Origin: an uncultured delta proteobacterium
GTDB taxonomy: Bacteria; Myxococcota_A; UBA9160; SZUA-336
Length of the DNA: 64,000 nucleotides
NCBI GenBank assembly: GCA_963704165.1
Contig: CAVPHD010000005.1
Span: 96,001 to 160,000, forward strand
Direction: 5' to 3'
The notes under the pieces were generated by a model. The model was not told the origin of the DNA, ran no database searches, and saw only the letters and a list, made by a program, of their open reading frames with translations. The number at the start of each line of letters is the position of its first letter. Within the stretch, counting starts at the first letter, position 1. Shown here one piece after another: positions 53,033-63,906 of this stretch. The translations under genes and the position numbers were made by a program.

Positions 53033-53210
53033 CAGCGGATCCGGGAAGTTGCCGGCGGCTGAACCCCGGCGAGCGGAATCTCGTCTGCGAAAGCCGATAC
53101 GGGATCCGAGTGGGAGTTCCCGGGAGTTCGTTCCCTGCGGGTGGCACACGGCTGATAGGATGGGGCTCCACCCCCGTCGGCGCCGATTCCCCGGATCGAT
53201 CCACCTTCCG

Positions 53211-55728
53211 ATGGAGTTCCTCAACCTGATCCCGAGCCGGCTCGCCACAGTCACGCTCTGGGTCGCGAGCGCGTTCGCGCTGTTCGTGCCGGGAGCGATG
53301 CGTTCGGCCGCGGATACGGTCACGTTCGAGTCGGCGGCCGGCTACAACGACCCGAACATCCCCTATCCGGGTGGGCAACAGCATGGCCCCTACGATTGGA
53401 TCGAGGGGGACGTGCGCGTCGTGGGCACCTGGGCGACGAACGTCGCGACTCCCGGCGCCGGCTATCTCCAGGGCCACACCCACATCGTCTCGAGCGGCCC
53501 GGTCTACCTCGGGCAGACCGGCAACTACATCTACTCGCACGCTTGGAACAGCGATCTCCAAGGCCTCTACATCCACTTCGAGGACAACCGGCCGTTCCGG
53601 CTCTCGTCGCTGCGCTACCGGCTCGGGAATCGCGTCTGGGAGGAGTCCTTCCCGAATGGATTGCCGTGGTCCTGGGGCTCGAACGACGGTCAGCTCCTGA
53701 TCGCGGAGACGTTCGACCCGACACTGACTCCGTTCTCCGTCTTCGAAGCGCAGTTCACGCCGTTCCCGGTCGACGACGGCTCGGTGCATCCGACCAATCC
53801 GGACAGCCCGGCCCCCACGAGCCCGTTCCGAACGCTCACGTTCGACCAGTTCAACAACGTGACGGCGGTCTACATCACCAACTCGGTGGCGCGCGTCTTC
53901 GTGGACAGCTTCGTCCTCGATCCACCGATCCAGACGATCTGTTCGAACGGTCTCGACGACGACGGAGACGGCGCGGCCGACTTTCCGGCCGATTCGGGTT
54001 GCGCCAGCGCGAACGACGCGTCCGAGCGCGGGCCCGGTCTGATCTGTGACGACGACATCGACAACGATGCCGATGGCGTGGCGGACTTCCCGGCCGACGC
54101 CGGCTGCACGAGCCCGGCCGACACGTCGGAGCGCGAGTCGACGCTGATCTGTGACGACGGGTTCGACAACGACGGCGACGGCGTCGCCGACTACCCCTTC
54201 GACCTCGGCTGCACGTCGGGTACGGACGATTCGGAGCGGGATGCGGCTCGGGTCTGCGACGACGGGGTCGACAACGACGGCGACGGCGACTCGGACTTCC
54301 CGGCGGACGCCGGCTGCACGAGCGCGGCCGATGACTCGGAGCGCGACGCGACGCGCGTCTGCGACGATGGCCTCGACAACGACGGCGACGGCGACTCGGA
54401 TTTCCCGGCGGACGGCGGGTGCGCTTCGGGCGCGGACGATTCGGAGCGGGACGCCGCACGCGTCTGCGACGACGGTCTCGACAACGACGGCGACGGCGAC
54501 TGCCGACTTCCCGCTCGACGCCGGCTGCACGATCGCGCGCGGACGATTCGGAGCGGGACGCGGCTCGGGTCTGCGACGACGGGCTCGACAACGACGGCGA
54601 CGGCGACTCGGACTTCCCGGCGGACGCCGGCTGCACGAGCGCGGCCGATGACTCGGAGCGCGACGCGACGCGCGTCTGCGACGACGGCCTCGACAACGAC
54701 GGCGACGGCGACTCGGATTTCCCGGCCGACGGCGGCTGCACTTCGGGCGCGGACGATTCGGAGCGGGACGCGGCGCGGATCTGCGACGATGGTCTCGACA
54801 ACGACGGCGACGGCACTGCGGACTTCCCGCTCGACGCCGGCTGCACGAGCGCCGCCGATGACTCGGAGCGCGACGCGACGCGCGTCTGCGACGACGGCCT
54901 CGACAACGACGGCGACGGCGATCGACTTCCCCGCCGACCCCGGCTGCGCGATCGCGGCCGATGACTCCGAGCGCGACGCGACGCGCGTCTGCGACGACGG
55001 CCTCGACAACGACGGCGACAGCGATTCGGACTTCCCCGCCGACGCCGGCTGCATCGAGCGCGGCCGACGATTCGGAGCACGACCAACGCGCGCCTGCGAC
55101 GACGGTCTCGACAACGACGGCGACGGCACTGCGACTTCCCGCTCGACGCCGGTTGCACGAGCGCCGCCGATGATTCGGAGCGCGATGCTGACGCACGTCT
55201 GCGACGATGGCCTCGACAACGACGGCGATGAGCGCTTCCGACTTCCCCGCCGATGCGGGCTGCTCGGGCGGCGCGGACGATTCCGAGCAGGACCCGGCGT
55301 TGCCCTGCGACGACGGTCTCGACAACGACGGGGATTTCGCGACGGACCATCCCGCCGACGAAGGCTGCACCGCCAGCACGGACCCATCCGAACGCGAGCC
55401 GACGCGGATCTGCGACGACGGCCTGGACAACGACGGCGATCTCGCGATCGACTTCCCGGCCGATCACGGCTGCACATCCGGCTCGGACGACTCGGAGCGC
55501 GAGAGCGGCCACGTCTGCGACGACGGTATCGACAACGACGGCGACGTCTTCGTCGACTTCCCGTTCGACTCGGACTGCGCGGACATCGACGGCGGATCCG
55601 AGGGCGAATCCGTCGCGCCCGAGGTGCCCTCGGTGGGTGGGCCGTGGCGTTGGCTGCTCGGCGCGGCGCTTCTGGCCACGCTCCTCGTCGCCTACGCCGG
55701 CAGGCGGGGTGGGCGCACGCTCGGTTGA
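53211..55728 (+). CDS. Cys/Asp-rich repeat surface protein with C-terminal sorting signal (several frameshifts in the repeats)
   Basis: Signal peptide, ~210-aa aromatic-rich domain, 16 CDDGxDNDGDG..DFP.D.GC units, C-terminal VPSV..WRW-TM-RR. Confidence 0.8.
53940..55620 (+). repeat. 16 tandem ~105-bp coding repeats
   Basis: First Cys codon of each unit at 53940, 54045, 54150, 54255, 54360, 54465, 54572, 54677, 54782, 54887, 54990, 55095, 55200, 55306, 55411, 55516. Confidence 0.95.
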
Positions 55729-55742
55729 AGCCGGTGCCGCTT

Positions 55743-57017
55743 CTAGGGAACCTCTGACTTGAAGAACGACGCGAGGTCCTGACCGGAGATCTGCTCCGCG
55801 ATCTCCCGGACGCGCGCCGTCGTGACGGTACCGCCTTCCTGCACGAGCTGGCGCGCGACGTCATCGAGACTGCGGGCTTGATCGGTGACGTCGCGAATGC
55901 GCCCATCGAGTGCGCGCAGCACCGTCACGGCGCGCGCGGTACCGGCGCCCGAAACGGTTCGGCTCCGCAGGTGCGCGGCCTCGGTGCCGCGTTCGGCGAG
56001 GAACTCGTACGCCCTCTGCAACCGCTCGGGCGACACCGTCTCGGATCGGCCGAGCGCCTGAAGCGAGTAGTACTCGGCCATTCCCTCGATCGCCCAGTCG
56101 CCATCGAAACCGGGTTGCAGGCGAAGCGCAGTGTGTATGACCTCGTGCAGGATCGGGCTCGTACCGTCCTCGCTGATCAACGGACGGTGCGCGTGCAGGA
56201 AGAGCGAGCCCGGACCCGAGAGTCCACCGCGCCACATCGGATCCCCCGCCGAAACGATCAGCAGCCGATCGGGGAGCGATCCGAACGCATCGCGCAGCGT
56301 CGGCAGCGTCCAGCGGAGAAGCGCGAGGATGTCCTGGCGATGAACACCGGCGCCGCGCGGACCCGCGATCGAGATGCGAACCCCCGCGACTTCTTCGCGG
56401 ATCACCCCGAGCACTCCCGCGATCATCCAGCCCGTCGGACGATCGAAGCGGCGCCCGGGATGTTCGACGCGATACTCCCCGCCGCGCATCTTTGCGTAGG
56501 GCGTCGCGATGCTCCAGCCCTCGGGAAGGCGAACGCGGAGCCGGGTCCGAGAGCGCGCTCCGTCCGCCGTGGTGCTCACGTGCGCCGGAGGCACGAGATC
56601 CTCACCGCGAAAGATCGCCCAGGTCTTCGCGCAACGAGCATCGTAACGGCGCGGGTCGCGGAGATGGTCGATCCTGAAGACATACTGGAGCCTTCCGCCG
56701 GAGGGCGGCGGCGTCCACGTCACGTGAGCGCCCTCCGTGGCGATCTTGCCGTCGCCACGGAACAGCAGATGTCGCTGCGGATCGATCCGGAAGCGGACCC
56801 ATTCCAGGTTCTTCGAACCGCGGCCGACCGCGAGCGTGACGTGCGCGGCGCGCTCCGTGGGCACGATCCGGGCGGTGACGTCCAAGTCGTAGATCAAGGA
56901 CTTCGGGGTCGGAGCGGGGATCGGCGCGGTCGGCTGCGTCTGCTGCGCCCGGGCGGACGCGACACCGAACTGCGACGAAGCGCAGAACAGCGCGAGCGAT
57001 AGGATTCCTGCTCTCAA
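55743..57017 (-). CDS. Exported gluzincin-type metallopeptidase-like protein
   Basis: TTG start overlapping the upstream TGA with AGGAG RBS; signal peptide; ILHEVIH followed by WAIEGMAEY. Confidence 0.8.
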   Translation of the reverse strand: MRAGILSLALFCASSQFGVASARAQQTQPTAPIPAPTPKSLIYDLDVTARIVPTERAAHVTLAVGRGSKNLEWVRFRIDPQRHLLFRGDGKIATEGAHVTWTPPPSGGRLQYVFRIDHLRDPRRYDARCAKTWAIFRGEDLVPPAHVSTTADGARSRTRLRVRLPEGWSIATPYAKMRGGEYRVEHPGRRFDRPTGWMIAGVLGVIREEVAGVRISIAGPRGAGVHRQDILALLRWTLPTLRDAFGSLPDRLLIVSAGDPMWRGGLSGPGSLFLHAHRPLISEDGTSPILHEVIHTALRLQPGFDGDWAIEGMAEYYSLQALGRSETVSPERLQRAYEFLAERGTEAAHLRSRTVSGAGTARAVTVLRALDGRIRDVTDQARSLDDVARQLVQEGGTVTTARVREIAEQISGQDLASFFKSEVP

Positions 57018-57973
57018 TTCCGTCGCTCCTCTCTCGCCTCGCGCGAGATCTCGGCGCCGAGCGCGATCCGTTCGGGCCAGGTCATTCCCGGTCGGACGCG
57101 CGCGTTCACCGCCTCGAGCCGCGGGGCGAGGCCCATCTGGTTCGCGATCTGGATCGCGAGTCCAGGTCGGGCATTCAGCTCCAAGATCAGCGGGCCGTGA
57201 TGCGCATCGATGACGACGTCCGCTCCGACGTAGCCGAGCTCGGTCTGGTCGCTCGCACGCACGGCGATCTCGAGCGTGCGTTCCCACTCGGGAATCGCCC
57301 GGCCGACCACCGGTTCGTGCGTATCGGGATGCACCGGAACCGGGCGTCCGTCGAGCACCGCATGGTTCGTGCGACCGGTGTCGATCTCGATGCCCGCGCC
57401 CACGGCACCCTGGTGCAGATTCGCGCGGCCGCGCGAGCGCTGTGTCGGCAGTCGCGTCATCGACATCACCGGCACCCCGCGATAGACGACGACGCGTATG
57501 TCGGGCACGCCTTCGGTCGTGATCGTGGCGAACTCCTGGTGAACCTCGAGCCGCTCCTCGGCGAACGCGACGTCGGGCTGTCCACCGAGTGCGTAAGCGC
57601 CCGAGATGATGCTCGCGGAGTGGTAGAAGAGCGCACGGCGTTCGATCCAGCGTCCGCCGGGTCGCCGGAACCATTCCCCGTCACGCTCGAGCACGACGAG
57701 GATTCCGTTTCCCATCGCTCCGTGCGCGGGTTTCAGCACGAACGACGCGTACGCGTCGAGCTCGCGCAGCATCTTGCCCACCTCGGAGTGCACGCGCGCC
57801 ACCGCGAGCACCGGTGCCGTCGGGATGCCCGCGTCGCGCAGCAGGCGCTTGGTCTCGAGCTTGTCGTCCACGCGTGGGTAGAAGCGCCGTGGATTCCAGC
57901 GCATCGTGAATTCACCGTTGCGCCGATTCATGCCGAGAACTCCCGCGGCGCGCAGCCGGCCTGCGAGCGTCAT
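57014..57973 (-). CDS. Alpha-L-glutamate ligase-like ATP-grasp protein (TIGR02291-like)
   Basis: GVLGMNRRN, NPRRFYPRVDDKLETK, FVLKPAHG, GVPDIRV, ANLHQGAVGAGI, GYVGAD, ELNARPGLAIQIAN. Confidence 0.92.
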   Translation of the reverse strand: MTLAGRLRAAGVLGMNRRNGEFTMRWNPRRFYPRVDDKLETKRLLRDAGIPTAPVLAVARVHSEVGKMLRELDAYASFVLKPAHGAMGNGILVVLERDGEWFRRPGGRWIERRALFYHSASIISGAYALGGQPDVAFAEERLEVHQEFATITTEGVPDIRVVVYRGVPVMSMTRLPTQRSRGRANLHQGAVGAGIEIDTGRTNHAVLDGRPVPVHPDTHEPVVGRAIPEWERTLEIAVRASDQTELGYVGADVVIDAHHGPLILELNARPGLAIQIANQMGLAPRLEAVNARVRPGMTWPERIALGAEISREAREERRN

Positions 57974-59550
57974 GGCACGCCCTCGTCGATCTGGCGCGCG
58001 AACGAGCGGAATCTCCAGAGTTCGGCCAGTCGGTAGCCGGTGTAGCCACCGATCGCGACCAGCGCCCCCATCGTCGAGATCACGAGCTCGGGAAATCCGA
58101 ACATCACGTGGACGAGGGCATCGAGACGAAAGACCGGATAGATGCAGACCGCGATCAACGTCGATGACGCGAGCCGGCGCACGGCCGCGCCTGGACCCTC
58201 TTCTGCGGACGTGATCGAGTAGCGCTCGATCAGCATCGTCAGGATCACGACCGGGAACAGGATGCTCGCGAACAGATCCTTCACCTCGTAGCTGCGTCCG
58301 AGCAGCGACTGGGCGATGATCGCGAGAACGACGACGCAGAGCAGCACGCCGAGTCGCGGGACGAGCAGGAGCTGCAGCCGATCGAGAAAGAGCCGCGAGA
58401 CGATGCCGAGCGCGATCACGGACCCGACCAGCGAGAGCCCGAGCGACAGGGACAGATCGCGAAGCGCGAGGGCGATCAGGAGCGGCATGAACGTCCCGAA
58501 CGTTCGCAGGCCGACCAGGTTCCGGAAGACCGAAATGATCAGCGCGCCGATCGGAAGCAGCAGGAGGATCCGAACCGCCTCCTGCGAACCGACGGGCAGC
58601 CGGTACAGCGAGACGGCGGCGAGCAGCGGATTCGACGGCACCATGAAGGAGGCGACCTCCTTCGCGTCGAGTGATTCGCGCAGCACGCGGTAGCGCGAGG
58701 AGATCGCTTCGAGCCCCGTTTCCTCGATCAGCGTCGAGCTTCCCGAGCGAAGCAGGAGGATGTTCGCGGGCCGCGAGCCGAAGAACCCGAGCGTCGGCGA
58801 CAGCGGAATCCAACGGCCGCCCACCCACACCTCGACCCAGACCGTTTCTCTCGCGTCGCGCTGCGCGTGCAGCCTCAAGCCCGCCGCGAGGCGCGCCGGG
58901 AATCCGACCGCGCGCAGGAGAGAGACGAGCAGCCGCGACTTCCCGACCTGGCTGCCCTCGCCGGCGGCGAGCGTGAGCAACGCGTCCGAGCTGCCGGTGG
59001 TGGCCGTGAGGATCTCGTCGGTCACGTAGCCGAGCAGCGTCCGCATCTGACCGAGGGGGTCGTTCGGCGCGGGCGGTGCGATGCTCGCGACCAACTCCCG
59101 GATCTCGGGAGCGTCGACCGGGAAGCGCGACGACGCGCGGGTATGGGCCGCGACGATGTCTTTGGTGGGCTTCTGCGCGAGATCGGTCGGAATCGGCAGG
59201 GGAATGTCGGCGAGCTGGACGCGAAATGTGTGCGAGATGCTGTGCACGCCATCGAACTTCCCGCTCCACACTCCGGTTCGTTGGCCGCGCTCGTTTCGGA
59301 TCGTGAACACCAGCCGATCGGAGGTCTGCCGCTCGTCGAAGATCTCCTGCTCGGCATCCGCGGAGGGCAACGCGACCCGTACGCTGCCGCGCTGTCCAGA
59401 TCCGCGCGCCTCGAGCTCGAGCTCGACCCGCCACAGGTTCTCGACGTTCGACGGCAGGATCGGAAGCTGCAGAACGAGCGTCTTCCAGGCGAAAATCGAC
59501 AGACCCAGCGCCGCGAGCACGCTTCCGGTGACCGTCGCTGCTCGATTCAC
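57970..59550 (-). CDS. Inactive transglutaminase fused to 7TM domain
   Basis: N-terminal TM, TGase-fold LLRAVGFPAR..WVEVW..WIPLSPT without the catalytic triad, then LYRLP, LLLPIGA, GLRTFGTFMP, LLLVPRL, FPVVILTMLIER, GYTGYRLAELWRF. Confidence 0.9.
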   Translation of the reverse strand: MNRAATVTGSVLAALGLSIFAWKTLVLQLPILPSNVENLWRVELELEARGSGQRGSVRVALPSADAEQEIFDERQTSDRLVFTIRNERGQRTGVWSGKFDGVHSISHTFRVQLADIPLPIPTDLAQKPTKDIVAAHTRASSRFPVDAPEIRELVASIAPPAPNDPLGQMRTLLGYVTDEILTATTGSSDALLTLAAGEGSQVGKSRLLVSLLRAVGFPARLAAGLRLHAQRDARETVWVEVWVGGRWIPLSPTLGFFGSRPANILLLRSGSSTLIEETGLEAISSRYRVLRESLDAKEVASFMVPSNPLLAAVSLYRLPVGSQEAVRILLLLPIGALIISVFRNLVGLRTFGTFMPLLIALALRDLSLSLGLSLVGSVIALGIVSRLFLDRLQLLLVPRLGVLLCVVVLAIIAQSLLGRSYEVKDLFASILFPVVILTMLIERYSITSAEEGPGAAVRRLASSTLIAVCIYPVFRLDALVHVMFGFPELVISTMGALVAIGGYTGYRLAELWRFRSFARQIDEGVP

Positions 59551-59565
59551 GCGCAAGCCCCCGTG

Positions 59566-60681
59566 CTAATCCGGCCGCTCCTCGAGCTCGGTGCGTGCGG
59601 CGCTCAGACCTTCGTCCACGGTGGGCAGCAGGGCGGCCGGGACGTTGGCATTGCGATCCATCGGCTCGTCGGTTGCGATGTGGAAGGCGGCGAAGCCCGG
59701 CATCACGAGCTGATCGAGCGCGATGCCGATCACTCGTCCTCGATGGGACGAGCGGATCGTGGACTTCTCGTTCGAGATCGGATCGAAGACGGTGCCTAGC
59801 ACCTGGTTCGCCTTCACCATGTCGCCGAGCTTCGCGCGCGACGCGAGGATTCCGCCGTCGTCCACGCGGATCCAGCGCGCGCGGTAGTAGAGCGCGGGTT
59901 CAGGAGTCTCGGCGCTCTTTGCCGTTCGCATTCCCAGCTGCACCAACATCCGCTCGACGCCGCGCACTCCGCGCTCGATCTCGTCCGACTGGAAGCGCAT
60001 CGGCTCCCCGGCCTCGTAGGTGATCGCGGGGATGCCGGCCTCGCTCGCCGCGCGTCGCAGTGTTCCGAAGCGGCCCTCGTTGTGGATCGCGATCTCGCTG
60101 CCGAAGGCGCGCGCGAGCCTCAGGATCTCGGGCCGGCGCAGATCGCCGCGCACCTGCGGCAGATTCGTGCGGTGGAACGATCCGGAATGCACGTCCACGA
60201 GCGCGTCACAGCTGCGGATCACGCGCTCGAAGAGCGAATGCGCGAGCCGCGCGGCGCTCGAGCCACGCGGCCTGCCGGGAAAGAACCGGTTCAGGTCGCG
60301 CCGATCGGGCATGTACCGCGAGCTGCGTCGGAAGGCGGCGAGGTTCACGATCGGAATCCCGACCAGCGTGCCCTTCAGCTCGTCGGGTTTGGAGCGGTCG
60401 AGTGTACGGCGCACGACCTCGATGCCGTTCAGCTCGTCGCCGTGAATGCCGGCCGTCAGGCAGAGAACCGGCCCCGGGAGCGTGCCTGCGACGACGATCA
60501 CCGGTGTGGTGGCGTCCTCTCCGACGAACGTCTCGGACACCGGGAGCGGCAGGCGACGCTGGTCGCCGGGCGTGATGGGTTGGCCGAGGAGCTCGAGCGA
60601 CTCCGTCCGGGCAGTCCCCGCCCAGAGCGCCAGGGACGCGAGCGCGGCGATTCTCAGGCGACGAATGGACTTCCCGTGCAT
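59566..60681 (-). CDS. Succinylglutamate desuccinylase/aspartoacylase-family (M14) peptidase with signal peptide
   Basis: AGIHGDELNG, DLNRFFPG, VDVHSG, TYEAG; N-terminal RRLRIAALASLALWAGTART. Confidence 0.9.
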   Translation of the reverse strand: MHGKSIRRLRIAALASLALWAGTARTESLELLGQPITPGDQRRLPLPVSETFVGEDATTPVIVVAGTLPGPVLCLTAGIHGDELNGIEVVRRTLDRSKPDELKGTLVGIPIVNLAAFRRSSRYMPDRRDLNRFFPGRPRGSSAARLAHSLFERVIRSCDALVDVHSGSFHRTNLPQVRGDLRRPEILRLARAFGSEIAIHNEGRFGTLRRAASEAGIPAITYEAGEPMRFQSDEIERGVRGVERMLVQLGMRTAKSAETPEPALYYRARWIRVDDGGILASRAKLGDMVKANQVLGTVFDPISNEKSTIRSSHRGRVIGIALDQLVMPGFAAFHIATDEPMDRNANVPAALLPTVDEGLSAARTELEERPD

Positions 60682-60754
60682 GCGAGGGGCGGATTCCAGC
60701 CCACTTTTCCCGCCGCCGCCAGATCTGCGCGCCCTCCTCGGGGCTCGAACCGGA

Positions 60755-61366
60755 TCAGGGCTTGAGCAGGAGGCGGATTCCGTTTCGCAAGGTGGCTTCA
60801 CCCAGGTTGACGCCGGTGTCCGCGAGAGACATCGCGCCGATCCCGAGCGCGAGCAGGAGCGCCGCGGTCTGGCCGGGCTCGAGGTCGCGCCGTACCTCGC
60901 CGTTCTCCTGGGCACGCTCGACCAGCTTGCCGAGTCGTACGCCGGCCTCGCGGGAGATCTCCGCGAATCGCTGCATGAGCTTCTCGGAGCGGGCGATCGA
61001 TTCGAAGACCCGGTGCGTGGCGATCGGGAAGCTGCCGACCACAGGCCACTCGCGCCGGGCGATGAAGGCCGTGTACCGGCCGATCGCGGCGTCGAGGTCG
61101 TCACCTCCGTTCAGCCCGACCACGGCATCGAGAATTCCGGAGAGCACCCAGTCGGTCACCGCGACCACGAAGTCGTCGCGGTCCTTGAAATGCACGTAGA
61201 AGGCGCCGCGTGTGAATCCAGCTCGGGCGCAGATCGCATCGAGACTCGGTGTGTCCAGACCGTGTTCGATCAGCTCGAGCAACCCCGCTTGAAGCAGCGC
61301 CTTGCGCGTGACTCCTTTCGACTCGGCGCGGCTGAGCCGCGGCTCGACGACGGGGCTCTCTTGCAT
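60755..61366 (-). CDS. TetR/AcrR family regulator
   Basis: SLDAICARAGFTRGAFYVHFKDRDD helix-turn-helix. Confidence 0.92.
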   Translation of the reverse strand: MQESPVVEPRLSRAESKGVTRKALLQAGLLELIEHGLDTPSLDAICARAGFTRGAFYVHFKDRDDFVVAVTDWVLSGILDAVVGLNGGDDLDAAIGRYTAFIARREWPVVGSFPIATHRVFESIARSEKLMQRFAEISREAGVRLGKLVERAQENGEVRRDLEPGQTAALLLALGIGAMSLADTGVNLGEATLRNGIRLLLKP

Positions 61367-61473
61367 CTCTTCGCGCTCCTTGCGCACTCCGACGACCTTC
61401 GGTGTTTTTAACACGACTCAAATCCGCGGGTAACGCAAGTCTCCTTGCGCTCCACGGACTCGCGGGTCGGCGG

Positions 61474-63906
61474 CTATCGGGTCGACTTCAGATGGACGTC
61501 GCGCTGGGGGAACGGGATCTCGATTCCCGCTTCGCGCAGCGCGGTGTTCACGCCGACGGCGATCTCGCTTCGCACGCGCGGGAAGATCTCGAAGCGGGTC
61601 CAGAAGCGAAGTGAGAAGTCGAGCGAGCTGTCGCCGAATCCCGTGAAGAGCGCGATCGGCTCGGGAATGTCGAGCACCTCCAGATGGGCGCGCCCCACCG
61701 CGACGAGCAGTTCGATCACTTGCTCGGGATCCGTGCCGTAGGCCACACCGACGGCCAGATCCACGCGCCGCTGGCGATCGGAAAAGGTCCAGTTCACCAC
61801 TCGTTCGGAGATCAGATTGGCGTTGGGCACGATCACGTCCGCACCGTCGATCGTTCGGACGGTGCTCGAGCGAATGCCGATTCGCTTCACGTCGCCGATC
61901 AGGTCCCCGATCTCGATCGTGTCACCGGTCTGAACCGGGCGCTCGAAGAGCAGGATCAGCCCCGACACGAAGTTGTTGACGACATTCTGCAGGCCGAACC
62001 CGATGCCCACGCCGAATGCGCCCGCGAGCAGGCCGAAGCGCGACAGGTCGATTCCGGCGGCGCCGATCGCCAGCGTGAATCCGATCAGCAGAATCACGTA
62101 GTGCACGCCGGTCGAGATCGCGGCCGGAACCCCGCGCGGGAGCGCGATGTGCGGGAGCACGTCCTCGTCGAGCACGAAGCGCAGGAACTTCGACAGCATG
62201 AAGGCCAGCCAGACCGTGACGAAGAACGCCAGCACGTCGCCGATCGAGACCGAGAGCGTTCCGATCTCGAGTTTCGCGAGGACGACACCTGCGAGCGCCG
62301 AGAGGATCTCGTCGTCGATGTCGAAGAACCGCAACGTGGCGAGGACCCACCCGAGAACCGCGGCCCAGTACACGAAGGCCACGATCCGCCGACGAACCAG
62401 TCCCCCGTGATCGCGCACCAGGCGCAGGCGCCGCAGCAGGGTGCTGCGCAGGACCGCCGTCACCGCGCCGCCGAGGATGCGCGCGAGTGCGTAGGCGGCG
62501 ACCGCCACATAGCTCGCGGAGAGCGTGCCGCGCACGAGCAGTCGGGAGGCCGAGATCATCCCCGCGGCGTTTGCGAGCATCGCGCCGACGAGCAGGGCGA
62601 GCGCGATCCGGCACGCCGGTAGGATCATCGGTCCAAAGCGGCCGACGTCCCCGAAGTGGCGTGTGTTGTCCGGGCGCAGCATCCACGCGAAGAGAGCCAC
62701 CCCGCCCAGCGTCTCGAGCAACAGCCGATACCGCTGCAAGATGGGCACGCCCTCGTCGAGCGACGGCAGACTGCCGAGCACGAAGAGCAGCGCGAGGCCG
62801 AAGACGCCGATGCGAAGGCCCCCGTAGAGCTCTCGCGGCAACAAGCGCAGGATCGGCACGAGAAGGACCAGCGCCTCTACGTCCGTGGCTACGGCCGGTG
62901 GCTTCGCCGCCGCGAACTGCGTGCCGAGCGTCGAGACGACGATCGCCGACGAGAACGGCCGGGTGAAGATGCGAGCGGCCGCCGTCAGCGTCGAGTCCTC
63001 GGCAGCCCAGAGCAGGACGCGTGACCGCGCGAGCAACAGGGCGATCAGGACGAGCCCGAAGACCCCGGCCTGCCAGACGTAGCGCGAGTATTCCAACGCC
63101 GCGTAGTCGGTGAACTCGCCGAGCCGATCACCAACGGAGGCGCGCAGTCGCTCGGCCACCGGTGGCGTGTCCGCCGATCTCACGTAGGCGTCTCCGCTCC
63201 ACAGGGGCGGCTGGTCGCGCGTGAACAGTCGCGACTGGAGCTGCTTCTGCCGGTCGGCGACCCGATCGAGCACTCCACTCACGACGAGCTCTTCCTGGGA
63301 AACCTCGTTCTGCAGCGCGAGAACGTCCAACCTTCGGCGTTGCAGCAGCTTCCGGGCGGCTTTGATCGCCTGCAGCGTCTCGGCGACCCGCTCCTTGGCG
63401 GACCCGGGAAGTCCCGCCGCGCCAGCCGAGCTCCGCGTGATCTCCCAGATCTCTCGCGAGAGGTCGAGCTTCTCGATCTCGGTCTCGATCGCGATCGCAC
63501 GTCGGGTCAAGGCCTGGCGCCACACTCCGAGTCGTTCCGAGCGGGCGCCCCACGCGCTCGAGAGATCCGAGAGCGTCTCGCGCGAGGCCACGCCGCCGAG
63601 TACGTCGTTGGCTCGCTCCTGCCGTTCGAGAAGCCTGGCCGCGAACTCGGGCAGCTTCGTGCCGATCTCGATCTCCGTCGCGTCCGGTGCCGCGACCAAC
63701 TCGATCTGCTTCAAGCCGGTCCGCAGCTTCTCCGAACGCTCGAAGATCTCGGGCGCGGGTACGGGTGCCGGGGGTTGGGGAGCTGCGGGCGTGTCCGGCA
63801 CGGTCGGCGCTTCCACGGCTGCGGGCGCTTCCTGCGCGAGAGCCCGTCCGGCCGTCAGCACGAACGCGGTGACGAGCAAGGCCGTTCGAAGCCGGGTCAG
63901 GTGCAT
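61474..63906 (-). CDS. Large MscS-family mechanosensitive channel (MscK-like)
   Basis: Signal peptide, coiled coil, multiple TMs, GVGIGFGLQNVVNNFVSGLILLFERP, IVPN, GVAYG, IPFPQRDVH. Confidence 0.93.
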   Translation of the reverse strand: MHLTRLRTALLVTAFVLTAGRALAQEAPAAVEAPTVPDTPAAPQPPAPVPAPEIFERSEKLRTGLKQIELVAAPDATEIEIGTKLPEFAARLLERQERANDVLGGVASRETLSDLSSAWGARSERLGVWRQALTRRAIAIETEIEKLDLSREIWEITRSSAGAAGLPGSAKERVAETLQAIKAARKLLQRRRLDVLALQNEVSQEELVVSGVLDRVADRQKQLQSRLFTRDQPPLWSGDAYVRSADTPPVAERLRASVGDRLGEFTDYAALEYSRYVWQAGVFGLVLIALLLARSRVLLWAAEDSTLTAAARIFTRPFSSAIVVSTLGTQFAAAKPPAVATDVEALVLLVPILRLLPRELYGGLRIGVFGLALLFVLGSLPSLDEGVPILQRYRLLLETLGGVALFAWMLRPDNTRHFGDVGRFGPMILPACRIALALLVGAMLANAAGMISASRLLVRGTLSASYVAVAAYALARILGGAVTAVLRSTLLRRLRLVRDHGGLVRRRIVAFVYWAAVLGWVLATLRFFDIDDEILSALAGVVLAKLEIGTLSVSIGDVLAFFVTVWLAFMLSKFLRFVLDEDVLPHIALPRGVPAAISTGVHYVILLIGFTLAIGAAGIDLSRFGLLAGAFGVGIGFGLQNVVNNFVSGLILLFERPVQTGDTIEIGDLIGDVKRIGIRSSTVRTIDGADVIVPNANLISERVVNWTFSDRQRRVDLAVGVAYGTDPEQVIELLVAVGRAHLEVLDIPEPIALFTGFGDSSLDFSLRFWTRFEIFPRVRSEIAVGVNTALREAGIEIPFPQRDVHLKSTR

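Follow-up and report, generated by a model that had tools for sequence, protein, structure and literature searches.

How does an Rlo system manage in a lineage that has its membrane protein and its ligase, yet no RloA protease beside them? This question is raised by four genes in a 64,000-nucleotide stretch of DNA, hereafter the window, from an uncultured delta proteobacterium (GTDB lineage Bacteria; Myxococcota_A; UBA9160; SZUA-336; GenBank assembly GCA_963704165.1, contig CAVPHD010000005.1, positions 96,001 to 160,000). The genes encode an RloB-like and an RloC-like protein flanked by two predicted exported zinc peptidases. The conserved four-gene form appears to be new; its core pair is known. 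The reading we favour, to which we give about an even chance, is that RloB and RloC here make and export an alpha-linked glutamate polymer or tag, and that the two predicted periplasmic peptidases replace RloA in a lineage-specific variant of the system. The four genes are:

60681-59566, minus strand: gene A, predicted exported M14 (AstE/AspA family) zinc hydrolase, 371 amino acids
59550-57970, minus strand: gene B, RloB-like inner-membrane protein, 526 amino acids, GTG start
57973-57014, minus strand: gene C, RloC-like cytoplasmic ATP-grasp ligase, 319 amino acids
57017-55743, minus strand: gene D, predicted exported two-domain gluzincin, 424 amino acids, TTG start

The tight linkage described in an earlier note on this DNA is found again in the sequence, with a gap of 15 nucleotides between A and B and overlaps of 4 nucleotides each between B and C (ATGA) and between C and D (TTGA).

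A known core pair

The Pseudomonas aeruginosa rloABC operon, characterised by Lormand et al. (mBio 2025, PMC12239564), encodes a secreted retropepsin, RloA, a membrane protein, RloB, and a ligase, RloC. According to the same paper, RloA cleaves runs of 8 or 10 glutamates and not of 6 or fewer, a triple rloA mutant is rescued in low salt by deleting rloB or rloC, and the system has a role in hypo-osmotic tolerance (PMC12239564). The words “desuccinylase” and “M14” do not occur in its main text.

Pfam and NCBIfam searches confirm the families that the earlier note had given for the ATP-grasp/7TM pair (PF14397 with PF14400/PF14402). B contains PF14402, PF14400 and PF01841, and its best NCBIfam match is RloB (NF052267, 224 bits, below the cut-off of 900); C belongs to PF14397 and to TIGR02291 (334 bits, above the cut-off of 314.2). 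An inactive transglutaminase-7TM protein (PF14400 and PF14402) directly followed by a TIGR02291 ATP-grasp protein is the Rlo arrangement, and judged by its domains the core pair is RloB/RloC-like, hence already known. The earlier note had described a predicted peptide-ligation system of unknown product; it had overlooked the Rlo system, studied experimentally in 2025 (PMC12239564).

B is predicted to consist of an N-terminal helix, a periplasmic beta-sandwich with a catalytically dead transglutaminase domain, and a C-terminal multi-helix membrane domain (predicted local distance difference test score, pLDDT, of the model 85.8). In a fold search, residues 37-295 match the bacterial transglutaminase-like structure 3isr (Z 22.9, root-mean-square deviation 3.2, 250 residues aligned). 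The triad positions hold S200, V237 and S251 against Cys, His and Asp in intact transglutaminases, and serine occupies the Cys site in 43 of 50 RloB sequences; with its Cys-His-Asp triad lost, the domain is, as far as its residues tell, catalytically dead. For the membrane domain, the whole-protein search returned only helical matches (Z at most 8.6), which is not evidence of a new fold because the domain was searched within the whole protein and not folded alone; an Atlas search with it gave no usable match. The residues that are invariant across 54 aligned RloB-family sequences all lie within this domain, among them R343, E442, R443, R507 and R513.

C scores 51.8 bits against the RimK family TIGR00768, under the cut-off of 143.4. 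Its ATP-grasp residues align with RimK; the N-terminal 60 or so residues are missing, and PF18030, the RimK N-terminal domain, was not found in C. Leaders were judged throughout by a hydropathy heuristic rather than by SignalP (an 11-residue mean hydropathy of at least 2.0, counted by hand). C has no hydrophobic segment and none of 58 aligned RloC sequences has a signal-like leader, which agrees with the ligase without signal peptide of the earlier note.

Conservation of the four-gene form

In a class-level sample of 61 genomes, 33 have PF14402: 30 carry this RloB subfamily, two the canonical type (G042 and G044), and one a 7TM-ligase fusion only. D lies within 4 kb of rloBC and on the same strand in 27 of the 30; in G002, G003 and G004 a contig end truncates the locus. 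The cluster includes A in 22 genomes (21 times upstream, once downstream of D); A lies elsewhere in the genome in three, was not found in four and is untestable in one. All four genes stand together in 20. The linkage is far beyond chance, and the peptidases are unequal, D being near-obligate and A accessory. By this neighbourhood survey, which the earlier note had suggested, the peptidases are conserved beside the core pair.

The absence of the PF05618 protease, to which RloA belongs, also extends beyond what the earlier note had seen: none was found in the window, in the rest of the genome (assembly 84% complete) or at any of the 30 loci of this RloB type. PF05618 occurs elsewhere in six of the 30 genomes, each time without a signal-like leader. 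The canonical rloB genes of G042 and G044 each adjoin a signal-bearing PF05618 gene.

D was found in none of the 28 class genomes without PF14402, and its sole occurrence outside the 30 is in G044, where it is unlinked to the canonical rloABC. In a sample of 151 genomes of the phylum, D occurs in 15, each of which belongs to this class and is one of the 21 genomes with PF14402. The core genes, too, stand apart: in quick, unrooted trees of full-length, non-redundant sequences, 50 RloB sequences of this type fall on one side of a branch, away from the RloA-linked canonical ones (support 100), as do 24 RloC sequences, drawn from a hand-picked subset, away from canonical ones (support 98).

Could A and D instead be passengers, or envelope enzymes that are co-regulated with RloBC but take no part in its chemistry? 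D stands alone in Pseudomonas-like and other genomes, and A has been lost or moved in several lineages. Against this, the gene order and the overlapping stop/start codons are fixed across six families of the class at 43-80% identity, D strictly co-occurs with rloB, and at the metagenomic locus L144 D directly follows a canonical-type rloBC. We give this explanation hardly any credence.

Two zinc peptidases

Neither Pfam nor NCBIfam has a family for D at E ≤ 0.1, and its homologues form 227 clusters at 50% identity (E ≤ 1e-30). Its structure model (pLDDT 92.9) matches M61 and M1 gluzincins (4fgm: Z 27.9, root-mean-square deviation 3.3, 365 residues aligned), and its profile matches an M61 protein of the same phylum (L197) with a probability of 97%. 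In this alignment the exopeptidase-motif Glu of L197 stands opposite Ser267 of D, and its Tyr region opposite Thr360. PF05299 has no match in D and marginal matches in some D homologues, and PDB sequence searches with D and with B gave nothing significant. In M61 and M1 enzymes the glutamate of the exopeptidase motif grips the free amino end, and a tyrosine before a helix ending in Leu-Asp is catalytic. The M1 form of the motif, GAMEN/GXMEN, is described in PMC10221039. The corresponding sites of D are:

56085-56147, minus strand: zinc site of D, H291, E292, H295 and E311 (HExxH and a downstream Glu)
56214-56228, minus strand: residues 264-268 of D at the exopeptidase-motif position, with the M61 Glu replaced by Ser267

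All four zinc-site residues are present in 95 of 95 close homologues and, in the order given, in 82, 84, 82 and 83 of 84 distant ones; Ser267 is found in 95 and 82, respectively. Eight positions (120, 137, 193, 251, 263, 278, 324 and 332) are Arg or Lys in at least 80% of the distant homologues. D thus resembles M61 and two-domain M1 aminopeptidases (PDB 4fgm, 7xyo, 8j9c, 6a8z) in its fold and its HExxH...E zinc site and differs from them in having no PDZ domain, in the Glu-to-Ser and Tyr-to-Thr replacements, in an identity of 10-19% and in having no Pfam match. These residues lead us to infer that D can dispense with a free amino end and binds a polyanion, a profile that RloA has as well.

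A signal-like leader is present in 81 of 83 aligned D sequences. Two long D “fusions” (P0127 and P0191) were set aside as read-through because they contain an internal signal-like stretch and are single members. The standalone D homologues of Pseudomonas-like genomes with rloABC (L233-L236) have signal-like leaders and no Pfam match. Haloarchaeal plasmid “glycyl aminopeptidase” proteins (L166:1886-3313) resemble the catalytic domain of D; they lack the exopeptidase-motif Glu and keep the Tyr.

A belongs to the AstE/AspA family (PF24827, 2.7e-44). Residues H80/E83/H165, E223, R122, R132 and R171 are identical in all 48 aligned sequences, and N131 is invariant in 44. By comparison with PMC10998430 and PMC9974463, they would form the His-Glu-His zinc ligands, the catalytic Glu and an Arg/Asn-Arg carboxylate site, and they correspond to the catalytic set of aspartoacylase (PMC10998430). 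Two terminal features of A matter for what follows:

60604-60681, minus strand: predicted Sec-type signal peptide of A, about residues 1-26, with a basic N-region and a hydrophobic core
59566-59583, minus strand: acidic C-terminal motif of A, E-[R/A/H/V]-P-[E/D]-stop, preceded by a variable linker

Leaders occur in 39 of 47 A-like sequences; the eight without are all rimK-linked, so that all 39 that are not rimK-linked have one. For both peptidases, therefore, the heuristic supports the signal peptides that the earlier note had reported. The nearest paralogues of A share about 40% identity, have leaders of 4-9 residues and are encoded no more than about 2 kb from rimK, the gene of a known poly-alpha-Glu ligase, in all eight rimK genomes; a quick M14 tree splits the two groups with support 100. 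The order rimB-rimK-M14 was also seen in one gammaproteobacterial genome, and several RimK proteins at such loci (L066-L074, L243) have a C-terminal TrkA_C domain. A literature search found no paper that joins rimK or rimB with the AstE/AspA family. The rimK-linked cytoplasmic M14 is a candidate Glu-removing enzyme, and it is only this rimK linkage of its paralogue that suggests a specificity of A itself for C-terminal Glu.

The acidic tail of A is present in 28 of 38 exported-type homologues, in none of eight rimK-linked ones and in none of 1569 control open reading frames of the genome, and it is kept in relocated copies. An artefact of the ribosome-binding site was rejected as its origin because the tail is too far from the start of B and persists in those copies. 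One guess is that it acts as a self-inhibiting substrate mimic.

The tail could also be an acceptor, and this touches a different explanation, that of protein-tag editing. Here B would present a specific protein of the envelope, a lipoprotein or a precursor of the cell wall, to which C would add Glu tails, and D and A would remove or shorten these tails beyond the inner membrane, in a regulatory cycle that involves no free polymer. RimK and RimB, which act on a protein tail, provide a precedent (PMC11957791), the Rlo paper leaves the option open (PMC12239564), and the conserved acidic C-terminus of A would suit an acceptor or a substrate mimic. However, the cluster has no conserved substrate gene, the C-termini of B in this family lack a final Glu, and the acidic tail sits on A, which is predicted to be exported and is dispensable. 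We consider tag editing of this kind rather doubtful. B as a Glu-tailed self-acceptor was rejected for this family: its C-termini are variable and lack that Glu.

It is also conceivable that C makes a short peptide or an N-acyl-amino acid, possibly not based on Glu, which B exports or senses and A and D hydrolyse. The solved relatives of A act on small N-acyl amino acids or dipeptides, and C is divergent from RimK (TIGR00768, 52 bits for a cut-off of 143). Such a small product is nevertheless unlikely, as D has a large two-domain peptidase fold and RloA needs at least 8 Glu, which indicates a long RloBC product.

A proposed route and its nearest relatives

We propose the following route for an alpha-glutamate polymer or tag. 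First, C would activate Glu with ATP in the cytoplasm and extend a Glu chain, as its kinship with RimK and its membership in TIGR02291 suggest. Second, the invariant Arg and Glu residues in the membrane domain of B may provide the acceptor site and the passage; B would have to supply the former because C has no RimK N-terminal domain. The dead transglutaminase domain would then hold the chain in the periplasm. Third, D would cut the chain in place of RloA, a role suggested by its complete zinc site, the lost Glu that grips the amino end and its eight conserved Arg (or Lys) positions. Finally, A might take single Glu residues off short products or off a C-terminus, in the way that the M14 enzyme CphZ acts on cyanophycin dipeptides. 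By analogy with P. aeruginosa, the system as a whole may serve envelope or osmotic homeostasis, and the peptidases would prevent a harmful build-up. We favour alpha-linked Glu over a gamma-Glu capsule because the missing partner, RloA, cuts poly-alpha-Glu. A parallel may lend support: the cytoplasmic rimK-linked M14 would be to the exported A what RimB is to RloA.

Related pairs occur in other settings. 7TM_transglut-ATP-grasp fusions (L080:5109-6974, L079:4415-6328) stand beside an HlyD-family gene, the former also beside a peptidase S51 (cyanophycinase-family) gene and a cyanophycin-synthetase-like ligase. A further RloBC variant, found in Pseudomonadota and in other Myxococcota (L228-L230, L232, L239, L240), is followed by a long TPR protein and by lipoprotein or outer-membrane-like genes. 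With such TPR neighbours and fusions beside HlyD genes, export of a polymer fits. At L242 an rloBC pair without an adjacent RloA converges on a circularly permuted ATP-grasp/transglutaminase/proteasome-like operon. The trans-envelope Glu polymer or tag system of the earlier note thus gains from the conservation and the leaders of its exported peptidases; its product and the trimming stay conjectural.

Several observations weigh against the route. Of the 29 testable genomes, 7 have a cluster without A. The 30 genomes carrying this RloB type are all members of one class, and therefore perhaps reflect a single recruitment event. Among the best 80 of 533 metagenomic D loci, 59 have at least 400 bases upstream, and rloC lies there in 39 and not in 20 (17 of these at 48% identity or less). 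Across 201 Pseudomonadota genomes, PF14402 occurs in 25 and D in four; all four are Pseudomonas-like and have rloB with two to four PF05618 genes, and their unlinked D adjoins a CxxCxxCC gene and RNase D. As the four apparently form one genus-level group, they amount to about one observation. Nevertheless, because D stands unlinked beside RloA in these genomes and without rloC at 20 of the 59 loci, it is not always a dedicated RloA substitute. The position of the catalytic M61 Tyr is Thr360 in D (76 of 95 close and 69 of 84 distant homologues), and Tyr is not among the four commonest residues there; given this, D could be slow or non-catalytic, with, for example, a binding role. AstE/AspA enzymes such as aspartoacylase shield their active site and take small substrates (PMC10998430), and the physiological substrate in Pseudomonas, RloC's own included, is still unknown (PMC12239564).

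The unlinked D genes also enter a bolder reading that we put forward as possible but tentative. D would found a family of secreted poly-alpha-glutamate depolymerases, with an M61 fold and a charge-reversed pocket, that together with A clears periplasmic polyglutamate made and translocated by RloB and RloC; the RloB membrane domain would be a remote relative of CapC, and the unlinked D of Pseudomonas a fourth, unrecognised Rlo eraser.

Pseudomonas genetics indicates that the product of RloB and RloC is harmful when uncut. A lineage that exchanged an aspartic eraser for two unrelated zinc enzymes is an independent test of this product. If D and A do cut poly-alpha-Glu, three folds converge on one substrate. 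The existence of a periplasmic polyglutamate in Gram-negative bacteria would then be strongly supported, and the unannotated D peptidase family and the rimK-linked M14 clade would gain a function.

Directly upstream of the cluster and on the same strand lie genes for a TetR regulator (60755-61414, minus) and an MscK-like mechanosensitive channel (61474-63906, minus). This order is kept within the genus, even where A is lost, and an MscS-type gene is near only two further loci. The MscK-like neighbour is suggestive given the link of Rlo to hypo-osmotic stress, but may be plain synteny. On the other side, a gene for an Asp-rich repeat protein (53049-55728, plus) converges on D with a gap of 14 nucleotides. 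It contains 14.3 copies of a 105-bp unit (54043-55546), and because the repeat is read in several frames the gene is frameshifted or mis-assembled. The protein has no Pfam match, and its end, a hydrophobic segment with a basic tail, resembles a C-terminal sorting signal. A scan of 55500-61600 for sigma-70 promoters and intrinsic terminators found none, which is uninformative at 68% GC.

The four-gene form may be undescribed, as the earlier note supposed: literature searches on the Pfam and TIGR identifiers and on the gene set found no description of it, with most subscription papers outside their reach, including Iyer et al. 2009. That paper (Mol Biosyst) reportedly defined these Pfam families and may list M14 or other neighbours.

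How does the cluster compare with systems that are better known? CapBCADE and PgsBCA combine a ligase, a membrane partner and exported hydrolases. Part of this layout is given in PMC11915815. If B were a remote CapC/PgsC relative, the product could be a surface poly-glutamate layer, possibly gamma-linked, that A and D anchor or release. A relaxed profile alignment does place the membrane domain of B in line with CapC across 138 columns in which Gly/Pro motifs match, and the listed CapC genomes (2) and RloB genomes (16) of the class do not overlap. However, the profile-profile match between the 7TM domain and CapC is not significant (E=0.39, probability 0.15%), so the earlier note's capsule-operon analogy is not supported at the sequence level. 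Among the open reading frames of the genome, the reciprocal hidden Markov model ranks are 23 (B for the CapC profile) and 9 or worse, the ligase is of the ATP-grasp and not of the Mur type of CapB, and CapC coexists with PF14402 in three genomes of the phylum outside this class. A capsule is quite improbable. No solved CapC structure was found for a fold comparison, and a PDB sequence search with CapC gave nothing significant. Proteins of about 1000 residues with two N-terminal CapC domains (L251:5878-9030, about 20 similar genomes) are common in the phylum, and the rest of their sequence is unannotated. The cluster shares with CapBCADE and PgsBCA the overall layout of ligase, membrane partner and exported hydrolases, and differs in its type of ligase, in having no significant CapC homology and in having no CapA or CapD gene.

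Three other systems also resemble the cluster. Cyanophycinase and CphZ carry out a two-step breakdown of an amino-acid polymer like the one proposed here, in which an AstE/AspA-family M14 comes last and finishes the dipeptide step (PMC9974463). The polymer is another one, however, and cyanophycin is made in the cytoplasm by CphA. Between A and CphZ the similarity is remote (8ein, E 1.8e-6) and confined to the C-terminal part. With the rimB-rimK-M14 locus the cluster would share the logic of Glu ligase and eraser, and A and the rimK-linked M14 are paralogues that have their active-site residues in common. Unlike that locus, which is cytoplasmic and without a membrane component, it has a C without the RimK N-terminal domain and an A with a signal-like leader and an acidic tail. 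The nearest relative is rloABC itself, which likewise has a dead-transglutaminase/7TM protein, then a TIGR02291 ATP-grasp, co-encoded with a predicted secreted peptidase. Here RloB forms a separate subfamily (about 27-33% identity, its own side of the tree, a more complete transglutaminase domain), and two zinc peptidases stand in place of the RloA retropepsin. We regard the locus as an Rlo variant because it would work like Rlo, yet without RloA.

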